A DNA stretch of 64,000 bases from Octopus sinensis (taxonomy: Eukaryota), in the NCBI RefSeq assembly GCF_006345805.1, contig NC_043013.1, forward strand, positions 25,048,001 to 25,112,000. Reading direction: 5' to 3'. Shown here piece after piece: positions 1,476 to 34,285 of this stretch. Under the pieces are notes generated by a model that was not told where the DNA came from, did not search any database, and worked only from the letters and a program-made list of their open reading frames with translations. The first letter of the stretch is position 1, and each line of letters opens with the position of its first letter. The position numbers and the translations under genes were made by a program.

Positions 1476-2990
1476 CGCTAACTGGGCACCTGGAGAGGCA
1501 AGCCCATGCCGTCCAACAGCGTCGTAGGGCGCTGGACAGACGGACCCGTTAAACTGCTCGGGGTCTGGTTCGGTCCGGACCTCCAGGTGGATAAGAACTG
1601 GGAAGAGGTGACGAGCAGGGTGGCACGTCTCACCCAGAAATGGGCCGAGAGGAAGCTGTCCCTGAAAGGTCGAGCGGAGGTGGCGAATGCGTACATTGCA
1701 TCCGTCATCTATTACCGCTTGACCGTCGTCCCTTGTCCCGACCGCTGGTTGGCCAGCTGGTACGCCTGCTCTTCGACTTTTTGTGGAAGGGTCAGGTGCC
1801 ACTGGTCAGGCGATCCATCTGCTGTCAACGACCGCTGAACGGAGGCCTTGGAATGCCGTGGTTGCTGTTGCGCAGACATGCGCTCAGGCTGCGGCATCTC
1901 AAGCGCTTCCTAGACGGTGAACAGTGTGGTCGTCTTTTGTCAGACGCGATTTCCGCAGCTCGTCTCTTTGACGGAGCTGCAGACCTGGATCAACGTAGAC
2001 CGAGAAAGGCGCTTGGCACCTCGAGTGCCGTCAAGCCCTCTCCGCCGTCCACCAGGCGGGCAATGCGGTCGGTTACAGCTCCACTCTAGCGTTCTATAGA
2101 GGTTAGTGGAGGAAAAATGCGACAACGTTCTCGGGGAAACTCTAGGCGTTGAAGATGACGAACTGTGCGGTCTGTTCGGGAGGACTTTCGGGCCGGGGCC
2201 GATGGATAATTTCCAGAGGTCTCTCGCTTGGCAGTGCTACCGAGGGGCTCTGCCTGTTCGAGATAAACTCTACCGGCACGGAAGTGCCGTCAGCCGGGCC
2301 TGCCCGAGGTGTTGCCAGGACGACGAAACCGTTCTGCACGCACTCGTTCAGTGCCCGAGTATTGCTGAAATATGGGTTATGTCGAACAGCTACTGTCACG
2401 TGTAGGACGGATCCGACTATCGGCCGAATCCATAGTGAAGATTGCCCCGCCGACCTCCTTTAACAAGGAGGGCGAGGCCGTTTTCTTGTGCCTAGTGGCT
2501 GTGGCGAAAGAGGTCGTGTGGTGGACTCGTTTAAAAGGGCTAAAGACAGACACTTTCCTCTTTGGTCAAGGCCTCATCAACTTTTTCAAGTTTCACTTGA
2601 AAAGGAAGATGAGGTTAGAGAGGAAAGTGCTGTCCGATACCAAGTTTTATGAAAGGTGGGTGAATTGTGCGAGGACTGGCCTGTATAAATGGACAGTTCT
2701 CAGGTTTCGCTGTGATTTCAAAGAAAAAGGTAATGTAAAAGGAGAAGAAAGGGGACTCTCTACACCCACTTTTTTGACCAGGCTCCCGTTGGCTTTTGTA
2801 GGGTTTTTTTTCCACCAGGAACCTTTCGAAACGTCTCCCCCTTTTGGGAGTTTTTCATTGTTGAATTTTATAAGTTGTTATAAAGATTTTTACTCGATGT
2901 TTTAAAAAACGGCAAAACCCTTTGTAACCTTTCGTCCTGTCTTGTCCCTCTATGTAATCATGCGTGTCAGCCCTTGTGGCCAATAAAAAA
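1476..2990 (+). mobile_element. 5'-truncated Tx1/L1-clade LINE (ORF2 RT C-terminus plus zf-RVT), frameshifted
   Basis: Overlapping ORFs give VKLLGVWFG, WAERKLSLKGRAEVAN, FLWKG...GGLGMP and CPRCCQDDETVLHALVQC (CCHC). GC-rich, ends AATAAAAAAGAAT. Imperfect TSD AGAATGGAT/AGAATTGAT. Confidence 0.88.
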
Positions 2991-3023
2991 GAATTGATTA
3001 TTATTATTATTATTATTATTATT

Positions 3024-6900: not shown

Positions 6901-7574
6901 ATTCAGAGTGTGACTAGGCTGGCCCTTTGAAATACAGGTGCAACTCTTTTTTGCCAGCTGAGTGGACTGGAGCAATGCTAAATAAAGTGTCTTGCTCAAG
7001 GACACAACACGTCACCAGGAATTGAACTCACAGCCTTTCATTCATGAGTCAAATGCCCTAACCACTAAGCCATGCGCTTTCACTCACACACATATATATA
7101 TGTATGAAAGTGAACCTCCTTGAACTGTATTATATACTTCATAGTATATACCTTATATACCATTCATATTTTTTAAAAAACACACCAAACTCTATGGATC
7201 TTTCAACTGAAAATCTTAACTGCTCTTAATTTCAGTACAAAAACAAATTTTTTCAGTCCTTTTCTTAACAGTCCTCTTTTTCTCACACTTCCTTCCATAT
7301 GTATACAACATGGGTTTTATTTACATATATTTTTATGTATATTTATATATATATACTCATATTTTATTAATATTTTTTAAAATGTGTCGATATATATTAA
7401 TATATGTATATGCATTTTAAGTTGAATTTATAAATGTATGAGTATGATTGCCTAATTTGTCTATCAATCCACTCACAAGGCTCTGGCCAGCTCAAGGCTA
7501 TAATAGAAGACACTTGCCTAAAGTGCTATGCAGTGGGACTGAACCAGGAACCATGTGGTTAGGAAGCAAGCTTC

Positions 7575-7965
7575 CTATTTCTTTATTGCCCGCAGGGGGC
7601 TAAACAGAGAGGGGACAAACAAGGAGAAAGGGATTAAGTCGATTACATCGACCCCAGTGTGTAACTGGTACTTAATTTATCGATCCCAAAAGGATGAAAG
7701 GCAAAGTCGACCTCGGCAGAATTTGAACTCAGAACGTAACGGAAGATGAAATACCTATTTCTTTACTACCCACAGGGGGCTAAACACAGAGAGGACAAAC
7801 AAGGACAGACAAACGGATTAAGTCGATTATATCGACTCCAGTGCATAACTGGTACTTATTTAATCGACCCCGAAAGGATGAAAGGCAAAGTGACCTCAGC
7901 AGAATTTGAACTCAGAATGTAACGGCAGACAAAATACTGCTAAGCATTTCACCCGGCATGCTAAG
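7575..7965 (-). mobile_element. Head-to-tail dimer of Deu/Nin-like SINE, tail type B
   Basis: Two units joined at GATGAAATAC|CTATTTCTTTAC (about 7754), sitting inside the head of a different tRNA-SINE (7445-7574). Confidence 0.85.
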
Positions 7966-8230: not shown

Positions 8231-8450
8231 TTTGGCAGAAACGTTAGCAAGCCGGGCGAAATGCTTAGCGGTATTTCGTCTGCGTTACGTTGTGAGTTCA
8301 AATTCCGCCGAGGTCGACTTTGCCTTTAATCCTTTTGGGGTCGATAAATTAAGTACCAGTTACGCACTGGGGTCGATGTAATTGACTTAATACCTATGTC
8401 TGTCCTTGTTTGTCCCCTCTGTGTTTAGCCCCTTGTGGGTAATAAAGAAA
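8231..8450 (+). mobile_element. Deu/Nin-like SINE, tail type B, with TSD
   Basis: Near-consensus body ending AGCCCCTTGTGGGTAATAAAGAAA, flanked by a TTGGTATT direct repeat. Confidence 0.85.
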
Positions 8451-10427
8451 TTGGTATTAGCCACATCAATTTTAACACAGGGCCTGCAATTGTCAGGAGC
8501 CCTGTCTCTCCTCTACTTAATAGCTTACTTGACACAAATGAAGTTCTGCTTATATTACACTCACCATGTGCTTTACTTGTCATTAAAAGCATTGCAAGAA
8601 GGAGATGAAGGTGGGGACAATGCTGATCCCCACTCCTACTGGGGCACATCTATGAGGGGATCCTAATTTTCATGAAACATATGTCTATTAAAGTGGAATG
8701 CCAATAGTGTTTTTGGCCCTGTACTCTGAGAACCCTTGCTAAACTATACTGCTAGGAAGTGTGGGTTCAATTTGAGAATAGTCAGTGGAGGTCCTCTACT
8801 CTACAAAAGCTAAAGGTTAATGTTTTATGTTTTGTGCAGCACGCCAGTCCCAGCCAAAAAACATTGATTGCTTGAGGCTCTCTATCATTAGTCACAAATT
8901 CATTATAATGTTCTCCACTCAAGCGTACGTGCAGAACCCCATTTGAACAAATTTTAACTGGCTGAATTTGCCACTATCATTTTTTTTTTTTTTTTTTTGT
9001 AATTTAAATGTATCAATACATAAAAGAAATTTTTTTACCCTAAATTTGCAAAATGTTACCAACAACTGTGAATTGAAACACTAAATACAACACAAAAAGC
9101 AATTAGTAACAGGTGTAAACATATACGGATATCGATAGGAGATACAAAGTTGACGAGGGCGAAGTCTACAAATTTTACATCATGAAATACAAAGGTCTTT
9201 TGCCGTCATTTCAAAGTGGTAACTGAATATTTCATAACGGAATAATTTCTTCTTAAATATATCGCCATGTCATCAGAAATATATGATGTAAGTTTTTTAA
9301 TGGTTTCAGTTTCAATTTTTTACTTTACCATTTACAGTAATTAATTTTAAAACATTTTATTATGCTTTTTTTTTACACCCTTCGCTGTTTATTTTAATCC
9401 ATGTGGATTAAAACGAATTTTTCAGAATAAACAACATGAACTGGAGCAAATCTTGCACTCCAAAATTTCCTTTAACGTCAATTCTAAGAGGTTGATGACA
9501 TTAAACTTGGGCATTTTGTCGAAAGAATGTCTAAACTTCTGATCGCAGACTATTTCGTTTAAAAGAATTTAAGAATATATGTGAGAGAAATCAAAGTGCT
9601 TTAAGTTTATTTTCCCTTTTCCTTTAAATTATCAGAATTTCGCTCAAATATAATTTCTCATAGTAATAACCTAACTGTGCCGCTACACGTAAAATATACT
9701 TTTATATCTTAAGTAACAGATACTGATAAAAGTTGTGACCACTTCTCTTTTAATTATATCTGTTATAATCAGTAACATTGCTGTATGTCTTGATTCTATA
9801 TATAATACTTTGATTAAGTCATTTTTCTTTTTTCGTCTTGTCCTTAATATTAGAAACGAACTTAATGTCGAAAAATTAATACAAAATTTACATATCTTCT
9901 AATTAAAAATTACAGCAGAGACAAATTGTAAAAGTTGTGGCACTAAATGAAATGTTGAAATCCACTGAACTTCGCCTTTTTTCGTTCGACAGATAATTTC
10001 GCATTTCAACACTTCTTTCTCCTTGCTTAAATCTTCCTCAACAAGTTATAAAGATTTAGTTTAACCACTCCCTTTTTTTTTGTTTTTTTTTACTAAAACA
10101 TTCACCAGAACAAAATATGAAAAGTATTAAAGTGGCCTTTAAACGCCCTAGCTTTTTTCTTTCTTTTTTTTTTTAAATATTGTTAGTTTTTGAATAACTT
10201 TTAAATGTTACACACCCACTTTTTTTCCCCTTTAAACATTTATAAGACATATAGAAACCAATTTCTGAAATAACTAACTTTTAAGCAGTTATAAGAAAGA
10301 TCGAATTAACAACACATCACACTCTCTGATGATATTGACTCTCGAAGCTCAAAAGGAGCCAGCGCTCGATCGATTAGAAATAGCAGTCAAATCATCCGGA
10401 ACAACTAGTAAAGATCACATTACTCAC

Positions 10428-22267: not shown

Positions 22268-22804
22268 ACAGATTTCTTTCAAACTGAAAGTATTACCTCA
22301 CATTACAATTGAGACATCATGCTGAAATAGTGTACGAGATAAGAGATTGCATATGGCAAAAAATTGTAAATTTTTGTGGCCCATAGCACTGCATAGACGT
22401 TGGTTCTTGTATTTGACGCCTGTTACTTTATTTTATTTCGAGTTTATGTATATATGTATGTATAAGCCAATGGGGGAGAGCTCTAAATGGTAGGTAGAGG
22501 TAGCTAGACCTGGTAGAAATAACAGCCAAATCTCCCTCAAAACATCCTACTGTCTTAATCCGACAATTCTGCCTATTATGTAGTTTTAATGATAAACTGT
22601 AACTAAAGATTAAGATTATTAATCCCCAAATTTCAAGCGTTTTAATAGCAATTAATTTTCTCTTTTTTTTTTTTTTTGCTTAATTAAAATGGTTGCCTTT
22701 TCCTCGTAGTTTTTTTTATGTCAGGTGTAAAGGTGAAGAGGGTTAACTTGAACGGGGTTAAGTAATAGAGATGTTTGGTGATTGTATGTGGTTGTTACTT
22801 TTCA

Positions 22805-23408
22805 CCAGCATCGGTTGCTCGCTCCAGCGCCATCCATTTTCGGGGCCGGTCGATTCGGCAGGTAAGTTGTTACACACTCCTGAGCGAATTTCCGACTTCC
22901 GTCGCACCGTCCTGCTGTCTATATCGACCGACACCCTTTCGGGGATCTAATGCCGAAGCCGGTCGTTCGGTTCATCCCACATCACCAGATCTGCTTACCA
23001 AAAGTGGCCCACTTGGCACCGTGCATTCGTCACGTCGCAATGGCTGTGATATACGGCTGCCTCCGATAGGGAGAGGAGAGGCCCGTTTCGTCCGTTTTGA
23101 GTTCGAGAGTAGATCGAGGCTGTCAATGTCCCCTGGGCCTCCAATCATTCGCTTTACCGGGCGGAATTGCGAGTCGTTCTCCCGCTAGCGCCAGCTATCC
23201 TGAGGGAAACTTTGGAGGGAACCTGCTACTAGACGGCTTGATTGGTCTTTTGCCTCCACACCCGGTTGCGATGATCGATTTGCACGTCAGAGGTGCTTCG
23301 GACTTCCAGAGTTTCCTCTGGCTTCGTCCTGACCGGGCGTGGATCGCCATCTTTCGGATCCCCAGCCGCCTGTTACACCTGAGTCGGAACGGGAAAGCGA
23401 CGATGCGC
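22805..23408 (-). pseudogene. Isolated 28S rRNA fragment (about 600 bp)
   Basis: Reverse complement of conserved LSU motifs: CGCTCCAGCGCCATCCATTTTC, GTTGTTACACACTCC, CTGCTTACCAAAAGTGGCCCAC, CTATCCTGAGGGAAACTT, GATCGATTTGCACGTCAGA. No flanking rDNA. Confidence 0.92.
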
Positions 23409-23660
23409 AGAAGTATCCAAAGAGCATTTGAAGCACATAATGCTTTATGAGTACAAAAAGGGAAACTCTACAGCCGACGTGACTCGAAGCATACACTCAG
23501 TTTATGGGAAAGAATGCCTGAATGAAATAAATTGCAGAAGATGGTTTGTAAAATTCAGAAGTGGAGATTTCAGCCTTGAAGATGAAGATCGAACAGGACG
23601 TCTAGTTGGGTTCGAGAATAAGTTCCTTGGGGCATTACATGAAGAACCCGGAACCATGTA
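23409..23660 (+). mobile_element. Mariner transposase N-terminal HTH fragment
   Basis: EVSKEHLKHIMLYEYKKGNSTADVTRSIHSVYG...CRRWFVKFRSGDFSLEDEDRTGR. Truncated, with no DDD domain. Confidence 0.88.
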
Positions 23661-24115: not shown

Positions 24116-24345
24116 TATTTCTTTACTACCCACAAGGGGCTAAACACAGAGGGGACAAACAAGGACAGATAAACAGATTAAGTCGATTACATCGACCCCA
24201 GTATGTAACTGGTACTTAATTTATCGACCCCGAAAGGATGAAAGGCAAAGTCGACCTCGGCGGAATTTGAACTCAGAATGCAGCAGTGAACGAAATAACA
24301 CAAAGCATTTCGCCCGGCTTGCTAACGTTTCTGCCAGCTCGCCAC
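24116..24345 (-). mobile_element. Full-length Deu/Nin-like SINE, tail type B
   Basis: Complete head to tail, flanked by a CCTACCAACC duplication beside a (CTAC)n tract. Confidence 0.85.
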
Positions 24346-24504
24346 CTACCAACCTGCCTACCTACAATCCTACCTACCTACCAACCTACCTACCTACCTA
24401 CCTACCTACCTACCAGGCGCAATTTCATCAATTTTTCGTTGGGAGGGCGCAAGGTCAGAAGGGAATACAATTTCAAGAGAAAAGGACAGAATAACATTAT
24501 TTAG

Positions 24505-25915
24505 ACCGAGAATGAAGGACTTCAGCCAGTTATGGAGAGCATCCTTCACACACACAGCATAGAGTTTTACCATGAGTCGTTTGTGTGGCACAGAGTTGAA
24601 GGCTTTAGCAAAATCAAGGTAGACAGTATCCACCCATGAGCCACCATCAGTAACTCGGGTAATGTCCTAAAAAAACTCGATGAGTTGACTACAGCAGTTT
24701 GAGTCAGGGATAAAACCAAATTGTGAGGGTCGAATAAGGCAGTGAGAGCTCCAAAAGTTCCAGAGTGTTTCTCTGCCGCAGGACTTCATCAGTTTTGCGA
24801 TGCAGCTTGTAAGGCTGACTGGACGGTAGTTGACAGGTAATATGCGATCACCTTTTTTGAAGAGGAACAACTCTGGCAATTTTCCAGTGCTCTGGAGTGA
24901 CAAAGTTAGAATTGAAAAAAGGAAGAGAGCTGGTGCAATAGAAAGAACCTACCATGTTTGAGAAGCAAATAAGTAACACCATCAAGACCAGGAGAGGCAT
25001 AGTTGCGCTTGTTCTTGAGGTGACGTCACAGCATTGTGTGTGTGAATTTCACAGATGTTACGGAACTAGATTTCAGAGTTGGTGAAGAAGGTACATTGGG
25101 ATTTTCAGCAGTAAAAATACGAGCATAGCATTCAGCAATAAGCTCAGCACATTCCTTGGGGGTCATCATTCAGTTATCCGACCAGTGTGGGGATTGTGAA
25201 GAGGGTCCACTGGGGAGTGAGGTCTCTGTTTTGAACGCATATATTTCCAGAACACGTTGCTGTCAGGGCTAGTTGATATACGTCGTTCAAACTCAAGCAC
25301 TGCCTTTTTTGTCACTTTCTTGAGACGGTTGGATGATCTGTTGCATCTTCTTCTGTTCTCATTTGTTCTATGCTATCTGTATTTCTGTTCAGCTTCACGA
25401 CGATCTTTCCTGGCAAGTCGAACTACTGCAGTCTTCCAAATTGCACTGTTTTTATTTCTAGAGTGTTTGCACGGTAGTGACGCTTCACCTGCTGCCCAGA
25501 TTGCACTGAGGATATTTTGGAAAACAGTATTGACGTCCTCTGAATCGTAAAATTCAAACCAGTTGGACGGCGTAACTTCTTACGGTAACAGTTCCAGTCT
25601 GCTTTGTTCCAGTCAAAGCGAGTGGTTTCAAGATGGTAGCGCTTCTTGTTTCTGCCTATAAGAGACAGATTGGTAATGATCACAGCATGATCGGAGTCTC
25701 CTAGAAGTTCTTTCGTCGTAACATTGATAACAGTTTCAGGAGTGGTAGTAAAGAGCAGGTCCAAAGTGTTATTACCTTTTGTGGGGAATGTGACTGCCTG
25801 GGACCAGTTTGCATCCAGCACTACATCAAGGAAATCGTCTGCGCTTTGCGGCCAACTAAAAGTATCCCATTCAATTTCAGGGTAATTGAAGTCACCAGTA
25901 ATGAAAATATACGTG
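24505..25915 (-). mobile_element. CR1/Jockey-group LINE fragment (APE endonuclease plus RT N-half)
   Basis: ITGDFNYPEIEW, NTLDLLFT, GDSDH; NYRPVSLTSCIAKLM, QFGF, VYLDFAKAFNSVPH. Frameshifted. A possible ORF1 remnant lies at about 26600-27060. Confidence 0.9.
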
Positions 25916-25920
25916 GCTGT

Positions 25921-26590: not shown

Positions 26591-27440
26591 ACACACACAC
26601 ACACAGTGAAACAGACAAATTGAATTTTAAAAATTGCACAGACGGTAACAATTTGAAAAATCGCATACAAGTGGTGGAGGAGGGTGGTGGTGGGTGCAGT
26701 GGCAGCGGTGTACGATGTGTGTTTGGCTTTGGCTGGTGTTGCATGTACGAATTGCATGTTTTGTCCCTGGTATATGATGATGATGATGGGTCAGTTGTAG
26801 TATTCAGAGAAAATGAAGAACGTGGAGAGCTGGACAGTGAAGGGCTTTTCATTGTGGAGTTTAATAGGTCATCAATTGTGCTAGTTTTGAAGAGTAGCCG
26901 TACTGGTGGTCATACTTTTAGTTCAATAGTGCGTTTTTCTAGAGAATTCCCTTGAGAATTTTATGACCAGATTCATCAGTAAACATTCTGGACTCTTTTA
27001 CATTATGTATTTTTGTAGTTTGTTCTTGTTTTGAGAAGGAACCTAACTTGAAGCAACTTTTTGCAGATCAATTTTTAGACACTATTTTCTAAACCTGGCA
27101 AAGTATGTAGTGGGTGCAAATTTCGATTTTGCACCTGCTAAAAATTTTAGGAGATGCGCTTGCACCCCTTGCACCTCCTGCTCTCGGGCCCTTGGACGGA
27201 GTTGATTGTTTACAAAAGCCTCTGTCCTTCGAAGTTATCTCTTTACTTCTCATCAATCGTGTTGTGACCAGCATCCTAGAACCTTTGCATCAATCTCTGT
27301 GCTCAATCCCTTTTCCTTTTTCCTTCCAGATGATAGCTCTGTAGCCTAGTTGATATCCCCTACACCTCTCTCCCTGAAATATACTCCCTCTTCATGTCTT
27401 TCTTGAAAACGTTGACTTGCAACACTTTAAACAGAATATT

Positions 27441-28485
27441 CTTTTCTACTCTTGGCATAAGGTCCGGAATTTTGGGAGAAGGGGGTCAATCGATTAGATC
27501 GAACGCAGTACGCAACTAGTACTTAATTTATTGACCCCGAGAAGATGAAAGGCTAAGTCGACCTCGGCGGAATTTAGCCATGAACCCAGAATGTAAAGAC
27601 AGACGAAATACCTATTTCTTTACTACCCACAAGGGGCTAAACACAGAGAGGACAAACAAGGAGAAACGGATTAAGTCGAATATATCGACCCAGTTCGTAA
27701 CTGGTACTTATTTAATCGACCCTGAAAGGATGAAAAGCAAAGTCGACCTCGGCGAAATTTGAACTCAGAACGTAACGGCAGACGAAATACCGCTAAGCAT
27801 TTCGCCCGGCGTGCTAACGTGTCTGCCAGCTCGCCGCCCTGCGGCAGACGAAATACCTATTTCTTCACTACCCACAAGGGGCTAAACACAGAGAGGACAA
27901 ACAAGGACAAACGGATTAAGTCGAATATATCGACCCAGTTCGTAACTGGTACTTATTTAATCGACCCTGAAAGGATGAAAAGCAAAGTCGACCTCGGCGA
28001 AATTTGAACTCAGAACGTAACGGCAGACGAAATACCGCTAAGCATTTCGCCCGGCGTGCTAACGTGTCTGCCAGCTCGCCGCCCTGCGGCAGACGAAATA
28101 CCTATTTCTTCACTACCCACAAGGGGCTAAACACGGAGAGGACAAACAAGGGCAGACAAACGGATTAAGTCGATTATATCGACCCAGTGTTTCACTGGTA
28201 CTTAATTTATCGACCCCGAGAGGATGAAAGGCAAAGTCAACCTCGGCGGCGGCAGACGAAATACCTATTTCTTTACTACCCACATGGGACTAAACACAGA
28301 GAGGACAAACAAGGACAGACAAACGGATTAAGTCGATTATATCGACCCCAGTGCGTAACTGGTACTTATTTAATCGACCCTGAAAAGATGAAAGGCAAAG
28401 TCGACCTCGGCGGAATTTGATCTCAGAACGTAACGGCAGACGAAATACCGCTAAGCATTTCGCCCGGCATGCTAACGTGTCTGCC
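27441..28485 (-). repeat. Tandem array of Deu/Nin-like SINEs (one tail-A host plus four tail-B units; two units have a 245-bp period)
   Basis: The junction AGACGAAATAC|CTATTTC starts at 27601, 27846, 28091 and 28254. Confidence 0.9.
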
Positions 28486-29057
28486 TTTTTAAACGAAATA
28501 TTAAGGGCATCAAACTCACAGGTCTTCGAGGGCCTGCTAAAGGGTCCTGCCTGGTTAACCAATCTCAGTGAATAAAAAAAAATCAACAAACATGCTAAAT
28601 AAACAATTTAATAATTGTATTTGAAGATTGGCATTTCGTGAAAACTTTTATTTCGTGTCATCCATACCCTTCTACTCTTGCAGAAAGTAAAATTCACACC
28701 TGTTTGACTTTTTGCTTTAAAATGATTGAAATATCACTTCCGTCAAAATATATATCAATTTTTTTGTGTCTTTAATTAACCAACAACTGTCATTCAGTTA
28801 TTCAAATTTTTTTCATCTTTACATTACGACCAATTTGCTTTAAGATGAAAATAAGTAAATGGATGAATAAATGAATGACTAAATAAATACATAAAAAGAA
28901 TGAATGACTAAATAAATAAATAAAAAGAATGAATGACAGAAAGAACGAATGAAGTAGTTTCGGTGAAGAAATGTAAGTTAGTTTAAACGAATAAGCAAAA
29001 CCAGAATAATGGAATAGAAACTTATATATTCTGGAATGCTAGATTCTATAAACGAGT

Positions 29058-32519: not shown

Positions 32520-34285
32520 ATTATAATAATGAAATTATTGTGTAAAGTGCTCAGATGCACTACAACTTATCAAAGGTACATGTACAGTACATAGGATTAT
32601 GTACAAATGTCAGGAAAGTGAACAGTGTATGGGTCATGATATACATGTGTGCATGCGTATGGAGGGTGGGAATATCAGGTGTAATGTTAGCAAATTTCAG
32701 GAAGCATGGAGGTTTTAAAGAATGAAATGTCTCAGCAGCTAGCAACTGATGCAAGTAGTTTGTTCCATGCTTCAGTATCCCTGAATGTGAAAAAATATTT
32801 CCAAAAATCATGGGAGCATGCTGTTTTCTGACTTTGTAGTCATTCCCACTTGTGTTACGCTCATGGAGCTCAAAAAGGTGCTCAAGGTGGTTATTGGCAC
32901 AATGGTTAATAATTTAGTGGGCGCTTGCTAAGTCAGTTGCCAGACTATGCCCAGGGAAGCAAAGCGTTCAGAGTATGGTAAATGCCTGATGCACATCTCT
33001 GAACAGTTTCCAGGAGGTCAATGTTCTGAGCAAGGTAGGGGTTCCAGACTAGTGATGCAAGTTCCAAGTGTAGCCACACCATAGCCATATACAGCCTTAA
33101 ATAGATAGCTGGAGAGGGCTGACAAAGGTCTTGCTGAGTGATGCTAAGACACGCTTGGCCTTCTTGTTAATTTTAGAGATGTGCTTTGTCCAACGCAAAT
33201 TGCTGCTGACAGTAATGCCCAGGTCATGTTCACAAGAAGACTTCATGATATTAGTGTTGTGGAGAAGGCATGTGGACACTTGGATTTTCCTCCCAAAATG
33301 CATTGTGGTACACTTGTCCAAAGCCAGCTTTAGTTGCCTATCCATAATCCATTGTTGCATTGTGTCTAGATCTGATTGCAGGAAAGACCTATAGTGTTCA
33401 GGATCTGTCCTTTTTATCTCAAGGTATAGCTTGATGTCATCTGCATATTTCTGCACTGTGACATTCTTTAAGTTGGCATCTATGTCATTAATGTATGCAA
33501 CAAACAAAAGGGGACCAAAAACAGATCCTTGTGGTACACCAGATGACATCTCATAGGGTGAAGAATGCTGTCCTAGAACCACGACTACCTCTTTTCGGCT
33601 GAGAATGAAGGACTCCAGCTAGTTAAAAAGATCATCTTTCACATCCATTGCAGAGTTTTGCCATAAGTCTTTTGTGTGGCACAGAATTAAAAGCTTTAGC
33701 AAAGTCAAGGTAAACAACATCAACCCATGAGCAGCCATCAGTGACCTGGTGGTGTCTTCAAGAAACTTGATAAGTTGACCACAGCAGCTGGACTTAGAGA
33801 TAAATCCAAATTGCAAGGGCCGGATAAGGCTGTGAGAATTCTAGAAGTTCCAGAGCATTTCTCTGACACAAGATTCCATCAGTTTGGCAATGCAGCTAGT
33901 AGGACTGACTGGACCATAGTTGACAGGCGATATGCAGTCATCATTTTTGAACAGAGGAATGAGACTGGCATTTTTCCACTGCTCCAGAGTAGCACCATTG
34001 TTAAGACAGAATTCAAAGAAGAGTGAAAGCTGGTGTAGAAGAAAGTACCTACTACGTTTGAGAAGCAGGTACATAACACCATCAAGACCAGGAGAGGCAA
34101 AATTTGCTCTTATTCTTAAGGTGATGTCGCAGCTTTGCAGGTGTAAATTCTTTAGTTGTTATAGAATTTGTTGTCAGAGGTGGTGGAGATGGTACATTTT
34201 GGTTTTCAACAGTAAAAATGTCTGCATAGCATTCAGCAGTGAGTTCTGCGCATACTTTGGGGTCATCAGTAAGTTAGAAAACTGA
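32520..34285 (-). mobile_element. CR1/Jockey-group LINE, RT to 3' end, in LAMTOR2 intron 1
   Basis: SGVPQGSVFGPLLFVAYINDI, KYADDIKL, DLGITVSSNLRW. Alignable by eye to the 24.5-25.2 kb copy. (ATT)n-like 3' tail near 32520. Confidence 0.9.

Follow-up and report, generated by a model that had tools for sequence, protein, structure and literature searches.

Short interspersed elements (SINEs) are usually pictured as landing near-randomly or in targets unrelated to themselves. The closest known system to the one described here is crocodilian SINEU/Tx1-Mar; in the part of that source available to us, the target preference of SINEU ranges from weak to strong (13–90%), and a LINE is called target-specific when more than 20% of its flanks lie in one target (PMC4494074). 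A single-nucleotide hotspot of Alu-in-Alu insertion, with about 19,000 cases, was ascribed to L1 endonuclease sites and an A-rich linker in the accessible portion of another study (PMC2836564). According to the sections consulted, 3′ target homology raised insertion of R2Ol from 12 to 96% (PMC6530143), and target sequence carried on the RNA of SART1Bm and R1Bm aids both priming and 5′ joining (PMC7265360). Tandem SINEs are also on record: about half of the Dip copies in a jerboa are multimeric, and SINE-derived satellites are known (PMC10702118, in part). In the literature searched, which left Repbase and most subscription papers outside its scope, we found no description of the cephalopod system reported below, and the parts consulted of PMC4824008, PMC4758252, PMC11194090 and PMC13282606 do not describe it.

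The window (the whole stretch of 64,000 nucleotides of Octopus sinensis DNA that was analysed) contains a SINE array at 27441..28485. The array SINE lies on the minus strand, and SINE positions are numbered from the first GG. A preliminary description of the window reported four identical junctions here and a fifth near 7745–7760; exact matches to the junction motif AGACGAAATACCTATTTC start at 27601, 27846, 28091 and 28254, and the fifth starts at 7744. Read in the sense direction, the array consists of the host target-site duplication (TSD), unit 4 (about 12–226), a 16-bp target copy, unit 3 (84–226), a target copy, unit 2, a target copy, unit 1, an older tail-A host resuming at position 48, and the second host TSD (Table 1). 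The copy of the SINE head that had been described beside every unit, at roughly 15 bp, is real, but it measures 16 bp, because both G/C pairs at the junction are target-derived, and it stands on the 5′ side of three of the four units; unit 4 is without one and adjoins the host's own 15-bp TSD, whose two copies differ at two bases. Units 1 and 2, suspected from the outset of tandem duplication, are local duplicates with 2 differences in 144 aligned sites. Other unit pairs differ at 8–17 sites and the host differs from the units at 36–39, so that the array amounts to about three insertions plus one local duplication. Short-read contigs carry the array boundaries (both flanks exact in X1 and near-exact in X4) and one internal junction (28057–28110, exact in X1); the number of units is that of the assembly, no record spanning the array.

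Table 1. Features of the array and of related elements in the window.
Feature	Position	Strand	Remarks
Host SINE's own TSD, downstream copy	27426..27440	-	13/15 match to 28488-28502
Older tail-A host SINE, head position 48 to 3′ end	27441..27612	-	79% to tail-B unit; 36-39 differences from units over ~130 sites including tail
Unit 1: full-length tail-B SINE with 3 extra 5′ bases	27613..27841	-	
16-bp target copy (head positions 48-63)	27842..27857	-	
Unit 2: near-identical local duplicate of unit 1	27858..28086	-	differs from unit 1 at 2 of 144 sites and shares its 3 extra 5′ bases
16-bp target copy	28087..28102	-	28057-28110 exact in short-read contig
Unit 3: 5′-truncated tail-B SINE, consensus ~84-226	28103..28249	-	15-17 differences from other units
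16-bp target copy	28250..28265	-	
Unit 4: tail-B SINE from ~position 12, bearing the composite's head (seamless type)	28266..28485	-	
Host SINE's own TSD, upstream copy	28488..28502	-	
Second composite, made of two tail-B units (7756-7964 and 7576-7755) that meet at position 48 with period 184	7576..7964	-	
Free tail-B copy, GGTATT within TSD	8233..8451	+	
Free tail-B copy in (GGTA)n tract, TSD begins GGTT	24116..24346	-	
Broken Tx1-like LINE fragment, more distant tail, then (ATT)n	1480..2995	+	zf-RVT E=4.5e-10; tail alignment

Several further observations concern the window. Units 1, 2 and 4 have in common a head variant at position 18 that is present in only 3 of about 300 heads, which may reflect local conversion or a single source locus. 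The junction at 27605–27618 is palindromic (GAAATA-GG-TATTTC). A 13-bp hairpin is predicted in the head (31–60), and site 48 falls at the edge of its loop. The second composite sits within the head of a different SINE family, part of which has been lost (7520–7575 and from 7965 onward). Decayed LINE fragments with endonuclease and reverse transcriptase (RT) domains occur on the minus strand at 24500–25920 and 33100–34160, and the minus strand at about 22780–23450 holds what appears from its motifs to be a decayed fragment of large-subunit rRNA.

The SINE is short, non-coding, dispersed, abundant (73 ends in a random Mb) and often 5′-truncated, and many free copies are flanked by TSDs. Motifs at about 10–21 and 72–84 agree with the consensus of the A and B boxes of a Pol III promoter and may represent them. 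ARAGORN reported no tRNA, and an Rfam search gave no real match, including none to U1 or U2. For MetaSINEs, which are defined by a 66-bp Meta central domain, the central motif was absent from the two supplementary files searched of PMC4824008, where the Meta consensus is given as a figure; we do not assign the SINE to them.

The junction is not peculiar to this locus. A 21-mer across it has 23,580 exact copies in the genome compared to 0 for the reversed control, and among the matches listed neighbouring copies are mostly 182–188 bp apart. A random sample, made up of 10-kb stretches at 100 round coordinates, contained 73 tail-B ends with SINE core upstream: 27 adjoined position 48 (37%; 95% interval 26–49%), 6 adjoined position 15 and 40 lay elsewhere. 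Extrapolated from this random Mb to the 2.72-Gb genome, there would be about 200,000 tail-B ends and about 70,000 site-48 junctions. The share of site 48 expected by chance is 0.009% under uniform insertion, 0.3–0.7% under a matrix built from non-self flanks, 4.8% under a preference for GGTAT and 26% under one for GGTATTT. The enrichment of self flanks that the preliminary description had proposed to look for is therefore evident against the uniform expectation, and its central claim, sequence-specific target-primed insertion between the A and B boxes with regeneration of the target, agrees with the fixed junction and with the random sample. With this many junction copies, and with short-read contigs that carry the boundaries and an internal junction, an assembly artefact fails as the main cause.

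In insertions outside the SINE, the TSD usually begins directly after the tail, and its left copy already contains GGT(A) for elements with GTAGT or GTAAT tails and AGAA for those with GCAAT tails; the GGT flanks at 8451 and 24115 are likewise found in both TSD copies, as the suggested GGT preference at non-self sites anticipated. Flank class follows subfamily, being GGTA for GTAGT/GTAAT, AGAA together with site 15 for GCAAT, and TA for many heads with 43G/48C. GTAGT tails stood at site 48 in 51 of the first 100 of 59,533 matches (counted by eye) and in 22 of 38 ends in the random sample, and GCAAT tails in 1 of the first 100 of 12,323 (by eye) and 0 of 15, with the qualification that the tail patterns used by eye exclude flanks with G at +15 and thereby hide site 15. 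Of the junctions, 2,927 run into the sister head type.

Other arrangements of the head were encountered as well. A second self site, seen for example at L216 and L224, lies at head position 15, in the A-box region (1,941 exact junctions, and the six random ends given above, which are mostly of the GCAAT subtype). Position 92 was considered as a third and set aside, with just five exact junctions; most of the 44 matches consisting of a head to about 100 followed by a full unit, which might have been read as insertions there, represent either one insertion whose head is doubled or minisatellites of the head. Four doubled heads (L320, L329, L336 and L342), in which a few A separate positions 1 to about 100 from the full unit that follows, each lie as a single insertion in one TSD, and such insertions likely arose by a template switch to a short head RNA. 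Head-only minisatellites with periods of 65–104 bp and at most 11 copies occur at L105, L335 and G000:C3430. At L428:108-250, a copy that we assume to be 5S-rRNA-like is fused to the SINE head right after a target copy.

Arrays of this kind could in principle descend from dimeric masters or from local tandem duplication, and some observations agree with such an origin: 11 of 106 adjacent pairs are less than 3% apart, units 1 and 2 of the array among them, TSDs surround whole composites, and tail-B hosts are not significantly more diverged than their inserts (0.059 vs 0.052, p=0.17). The remaining 95 of the 106 pairs are at least 3% apart, with a median of 0.088 for adjacent units vs 0.094 for random pairs, so that, in the comparison of neighbours that had been recommended, about 90% are as different as random copies. 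An unbiased test of hosts used 70 of 814 tail-A1 copies, chosen by tail motif alone. Of these, 22 were flagged as hosts, one of them in error; the head was native in 33, and the assignment was ambiguous in the other 15, 4 of which have tail-B sequence upstream. A tail-B insert is thus present in 21 of 70 clearly and in up to 4 more probably. Divergence is 0.087 in A1 hosts, matching the 0.086 of free A1 copies and about twice the 0.043 of the inserts, and the host was the more diverged member in 16 of 21 pairs and the less diverged in 4 (p=0.004). Hosts are drawn from several families and as a rule have no derived mutations in common, at least two being shared in only 16 of 946 tail-A pairs and 2 of 1,653 tail-B pairs. 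A start past position 66 is seen in a single array among 25 random ones, compared to 10 of 47 free matches, the 10 including 4–5 short ones that are other elements. The composites show neither the equal age of halves nor the shared masters of dimeric SINEs. An origin from dimers or duplication is refuted as the main cause, and we grant it hardly any probability.

Independent insertion is also visible in the joins themselves. Genome-wide, there are 98 exact matches in which a full head follows a target copy, the spacer varying, and about 18 of the 25 inspected are nested insertions at 48; at L140 and L315, just the last 9–15 bases of the tail were inserted between target copies. Joins with a TSD and a full head, the form that the preliminary description took as typical, are nevertheless rare (an estimated 430–600 genome-wide, less than 1% of junctions). 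Most junctions belong to seamless, head-less units of 184 bp, which exceed the TSD type more than 100-fold. In A1 composites the hosts keep their own letters at 61–63 in 16 of 17 cases, while the composite heads have insert-type letters there in 18 of 20, carry the insert-only 43G in 6 of 20 (vs 0 of 33 native A1 heads) and are intermediate in divergence (0.062). This one-sided pattern is consistent with a fixed nick and a 5′ end resolved through homology, and the 5′ ends of head-less units were likely joined via homology. Two earlier readings of these letters were dropped. An unmatched control had hinted that hosts contain long RNA-templated tracts, which disappeared with a subfamily-matched one, and position 19 failed as a marker of head ancestry, the control having been wrong: at that position A1 heads look like tail-B heads. 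A seamless join keeps one A+B head complete, so that inactivation of the host's Pol III promoter, as had been proposed, is not the usual outcome; the surviving complete promoter now precedes the newer tail.

A LINE lineage occupies the same base. At locus L131, the 3′ end of a LINE lies on position 48. The family is young, the 40 copies scored of 431 candidates all being 98–100% alike. Among the first 100 of 172 matches to its tail, counted by eye, 85 end in GAAATT and 83 of these adjoin position 48, with base 48 being C in 47, G in 35 and A in 1; the 15 that end in GAAATA were set apart, and 2 of them are at site 48. All six full-length copies fetched have the structure host head 1–63, 5.3 kb of LINE, and host from 48 to the end, flanked by a 16-bp target duplication. 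We found 75 full-length 5′ joins, and base 48 was identical on both sides of the LINE in 39 of 39 paired copies. We also fetched 20 older relatives (63–88% amino-acid identity). A LINE end was readable in 16; 14 of these are at site 48, and none of the 14 has C there. Both shares (83/85 and 14/16) lie above the 20% of flanks by which target-specific LINEs are recognized. Other candidates did not share the site: a LINE family matching in the last 27 bases was at site 48 in 0 of 26 cases, the Tx1 fragment in the window (1480..2995) has a more distant tail and does not lie at the site, and none of 18 odd-tail junctions was a LINE end.

ORF2 of the LINE contains endonuclease, RT and zf-RVT domains, and several young copies have an open ORF2 of 1,134 aa; ORF1 contains a zinc knuckle. 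One of 120 listed protein matches was named Transposon TX1 149 kDa protein (37%), and the best named relative is from an octopod. The LINE may be described as Tx1-like, a placement drawn from domains that are not exclusive to Tx1 and from the one named match, not from a tree; at that resolution, the Tx1-type enzyme postulated from the window alone fits a lineage found at the same base. A poly(A) signal lies a few bases upstream of the junction, so LINE RNA probably includes target sequence. At L430–L435, the left target copy of the LINE has variants, such as 55A in L432 and L434, that the right copy of the host lacks; LINE RNA may thus begin within the SINE head. At L422, a 5′-truncated LINE of a different family follows head 1–60, with no host remainder past its end. 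Other zf-RVT LINE families (L051; L052–L059; the L260 group; L194 and L197) have fixed flanks of their own, among them two shared repeats, a related tail followed by (ATCT)n, and one that is presumably a U1-snRNA-like 5′ end.

The 3′ junction is fixed, the target is duplicated, hosts are older than inserts, and a LINE lineage ends on the same base. We consider it probable that the endonuclease of this lineage cuts the SINE head at 47|48 and that the SINE rides on ancestors of the lineage; the SINE inserts predate the intact LINE family, so only an ancestor of that family can have mobilised them. The LINE enzyme would nick the head between 47 and 48 and mobilise the SINE via the related 3′ tails (26–30 of the last 36 bases are identical; the tail is also found in other zf-RVT LINEs), with target-primed reverse transcription beginning at the nick. 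With the host's head repeated at the end of the SINE cDNA, the 5′ end of the latter would usually anneal to that head and overwrite part of it, leaving a head, a new unit and a head-less remainder with a period of 184. Each event would leave a fresh target behind the new tail, so that chains grow; about one in ten adjacent pairs reflects local duplication instead.

Enzyme specificity may not account for the whole preference. The GCAAT tail is closest to that of the LINE, yet it is almost never at site 48, where GTAGT is found; tail likeness thus fails to predict target. The SINE is also much less specific than the LINE (about 50% vs 98%). TSD-type, non-homologous self-insertion is estimated at 1–1.4% of GG-class insertions, not above the prediction from a 4–5-base preference. 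Homology, not cleavage, may therefore be the source of much of the excess, and read-through RNA may sharpen the choice of site by pairing with the cut strand. Taken further, a loosely specific enzyme could be guided altogether by RNA, the read-through 3′ end pairing with the cut strand, homology of the head capturing the other end, and subfamilies inheriting the flank of their source. The dependence of flank class on subfamily speaks for such guidance, as do the excess of seamless joins, Pol III read-through, which would be expected of a SINE with no run of four T, and the probable presence of target sequence in LINE RNA as well; R2Ol (PMC6530143), SART1Bm and R1Bm (PMC7265360) offer precedents in the parts of those reports consulted. 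Against it, no long templated tract is seen, matched A1 hosts keeping 61–63 and being as diverged as free copies, and a tract is suggested at L168 and L338 only; LINE insertions are found with C as well as with G at base 48, and the base is the same on the two sides. A 7-base match would predict more non-self than self insertions (69 of 261 sites being self), whereas the GGTATTT flanks observed were 2 non-self vs 26 self. G at base 48 had been taken as proof of RNA pairing, an argument weakened by the absence of C among the 14 older LINE copies: since these occupy no 48C hosts, the G bias of the SINE may reflect timing. We regard guidance by RNA as unlikely to be the main cause. Homing at the DNA level would start from a break in the head near 48, made by the LINE enzyme or due to the hairpin, with a unit from another composite locus copied in during repair. 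It would yield an identical seamless product, and the predicted fold of the head is a long hairpin whose loop edge holds site 48. This scheme is very improbable: the 3′ register is the same where TSD-flanked elements lie at unrelated sites and where self insertions are truncated or of the TSD type, and conversion is one-sided, broad in the head and shorter than 14 bases downstream.

Beyond cutting by the LINE endonuclease, a closed, self-amplifying loop can be proposed, although we hold it as a tentative and somewhat doubtful possibility: the LINE would have evolved to cut within the promoter region of its own SINE passenger, RNA homology would lead to seamless knock-ins that capture older promoters, and subfamilies may inherit targets from the flank of the source RNA. 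If this were true, promoter takeover would cover about one third of the loci of one sister subfamily, and the choice of target through an inherited flank would amount to heritable RNA-templated targeting by an APE-type retrotransposon. By estimate the family numbers 200,000 copies, of which about one third lie at one base of the family's own head. With the head as target, every gain in copies also adds targets, the promoters of older elements come under younger tails, and tandem arrays start from dispersed repeats. In repeat annotation, composites of this sort will be mistaken for separate dimeric families and given wrong ages. As several young LINE copies have an open ORF2, this one system could be used to test the shares of endonuclease and RNA homology in the Tx1 group.

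The following comparisons rest on the parts of the cited sources available to us. As in SINEU/Tx1-Mar, of which the octopus SINE is not a member, a Tx1-type LINE and a passenger SINE appear to use one target in an abundant repeat, and tandem SINE copies sandwich a TSD; the target there is a Mariner DNA transposon (Mariner-N4), in contrast to the SINE's own head in the octopus, the SINEU head is snRNA-derived whereas that of the octopus SINE is apparently tRNA-like and without a U1/U2 match in Rfam, and the octopus joins, unlike those of SINEU, are mostly seamless, because insert and target are homologous (PMC4494074). As at the Alu-in-Alu hotspot, a SINE inserts in sense at one position of its own family, but Alu does so without a dedicated LINE at the site, while in the octopus 37% of ends and a LINE lineage are found there (PMC2836564). 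R2, R1Bm and SART1 are autonomous elements of rDNA or telomeric repeats with experimental evidence, whereas the octopus effect is deduced from sequence (PMC6530143, PMC7265360). The tandem SINEs described previously are full-length multimers or satellites driven by duplication, unlike the head-less and mostly independently inserted units of the octopus (PMC10702118). The sequence evidence lends good support to a real, large-scale system in which a SINE and a target-specific LINE share a site in the SINE's own head, the self-target being a twist on a known kind.
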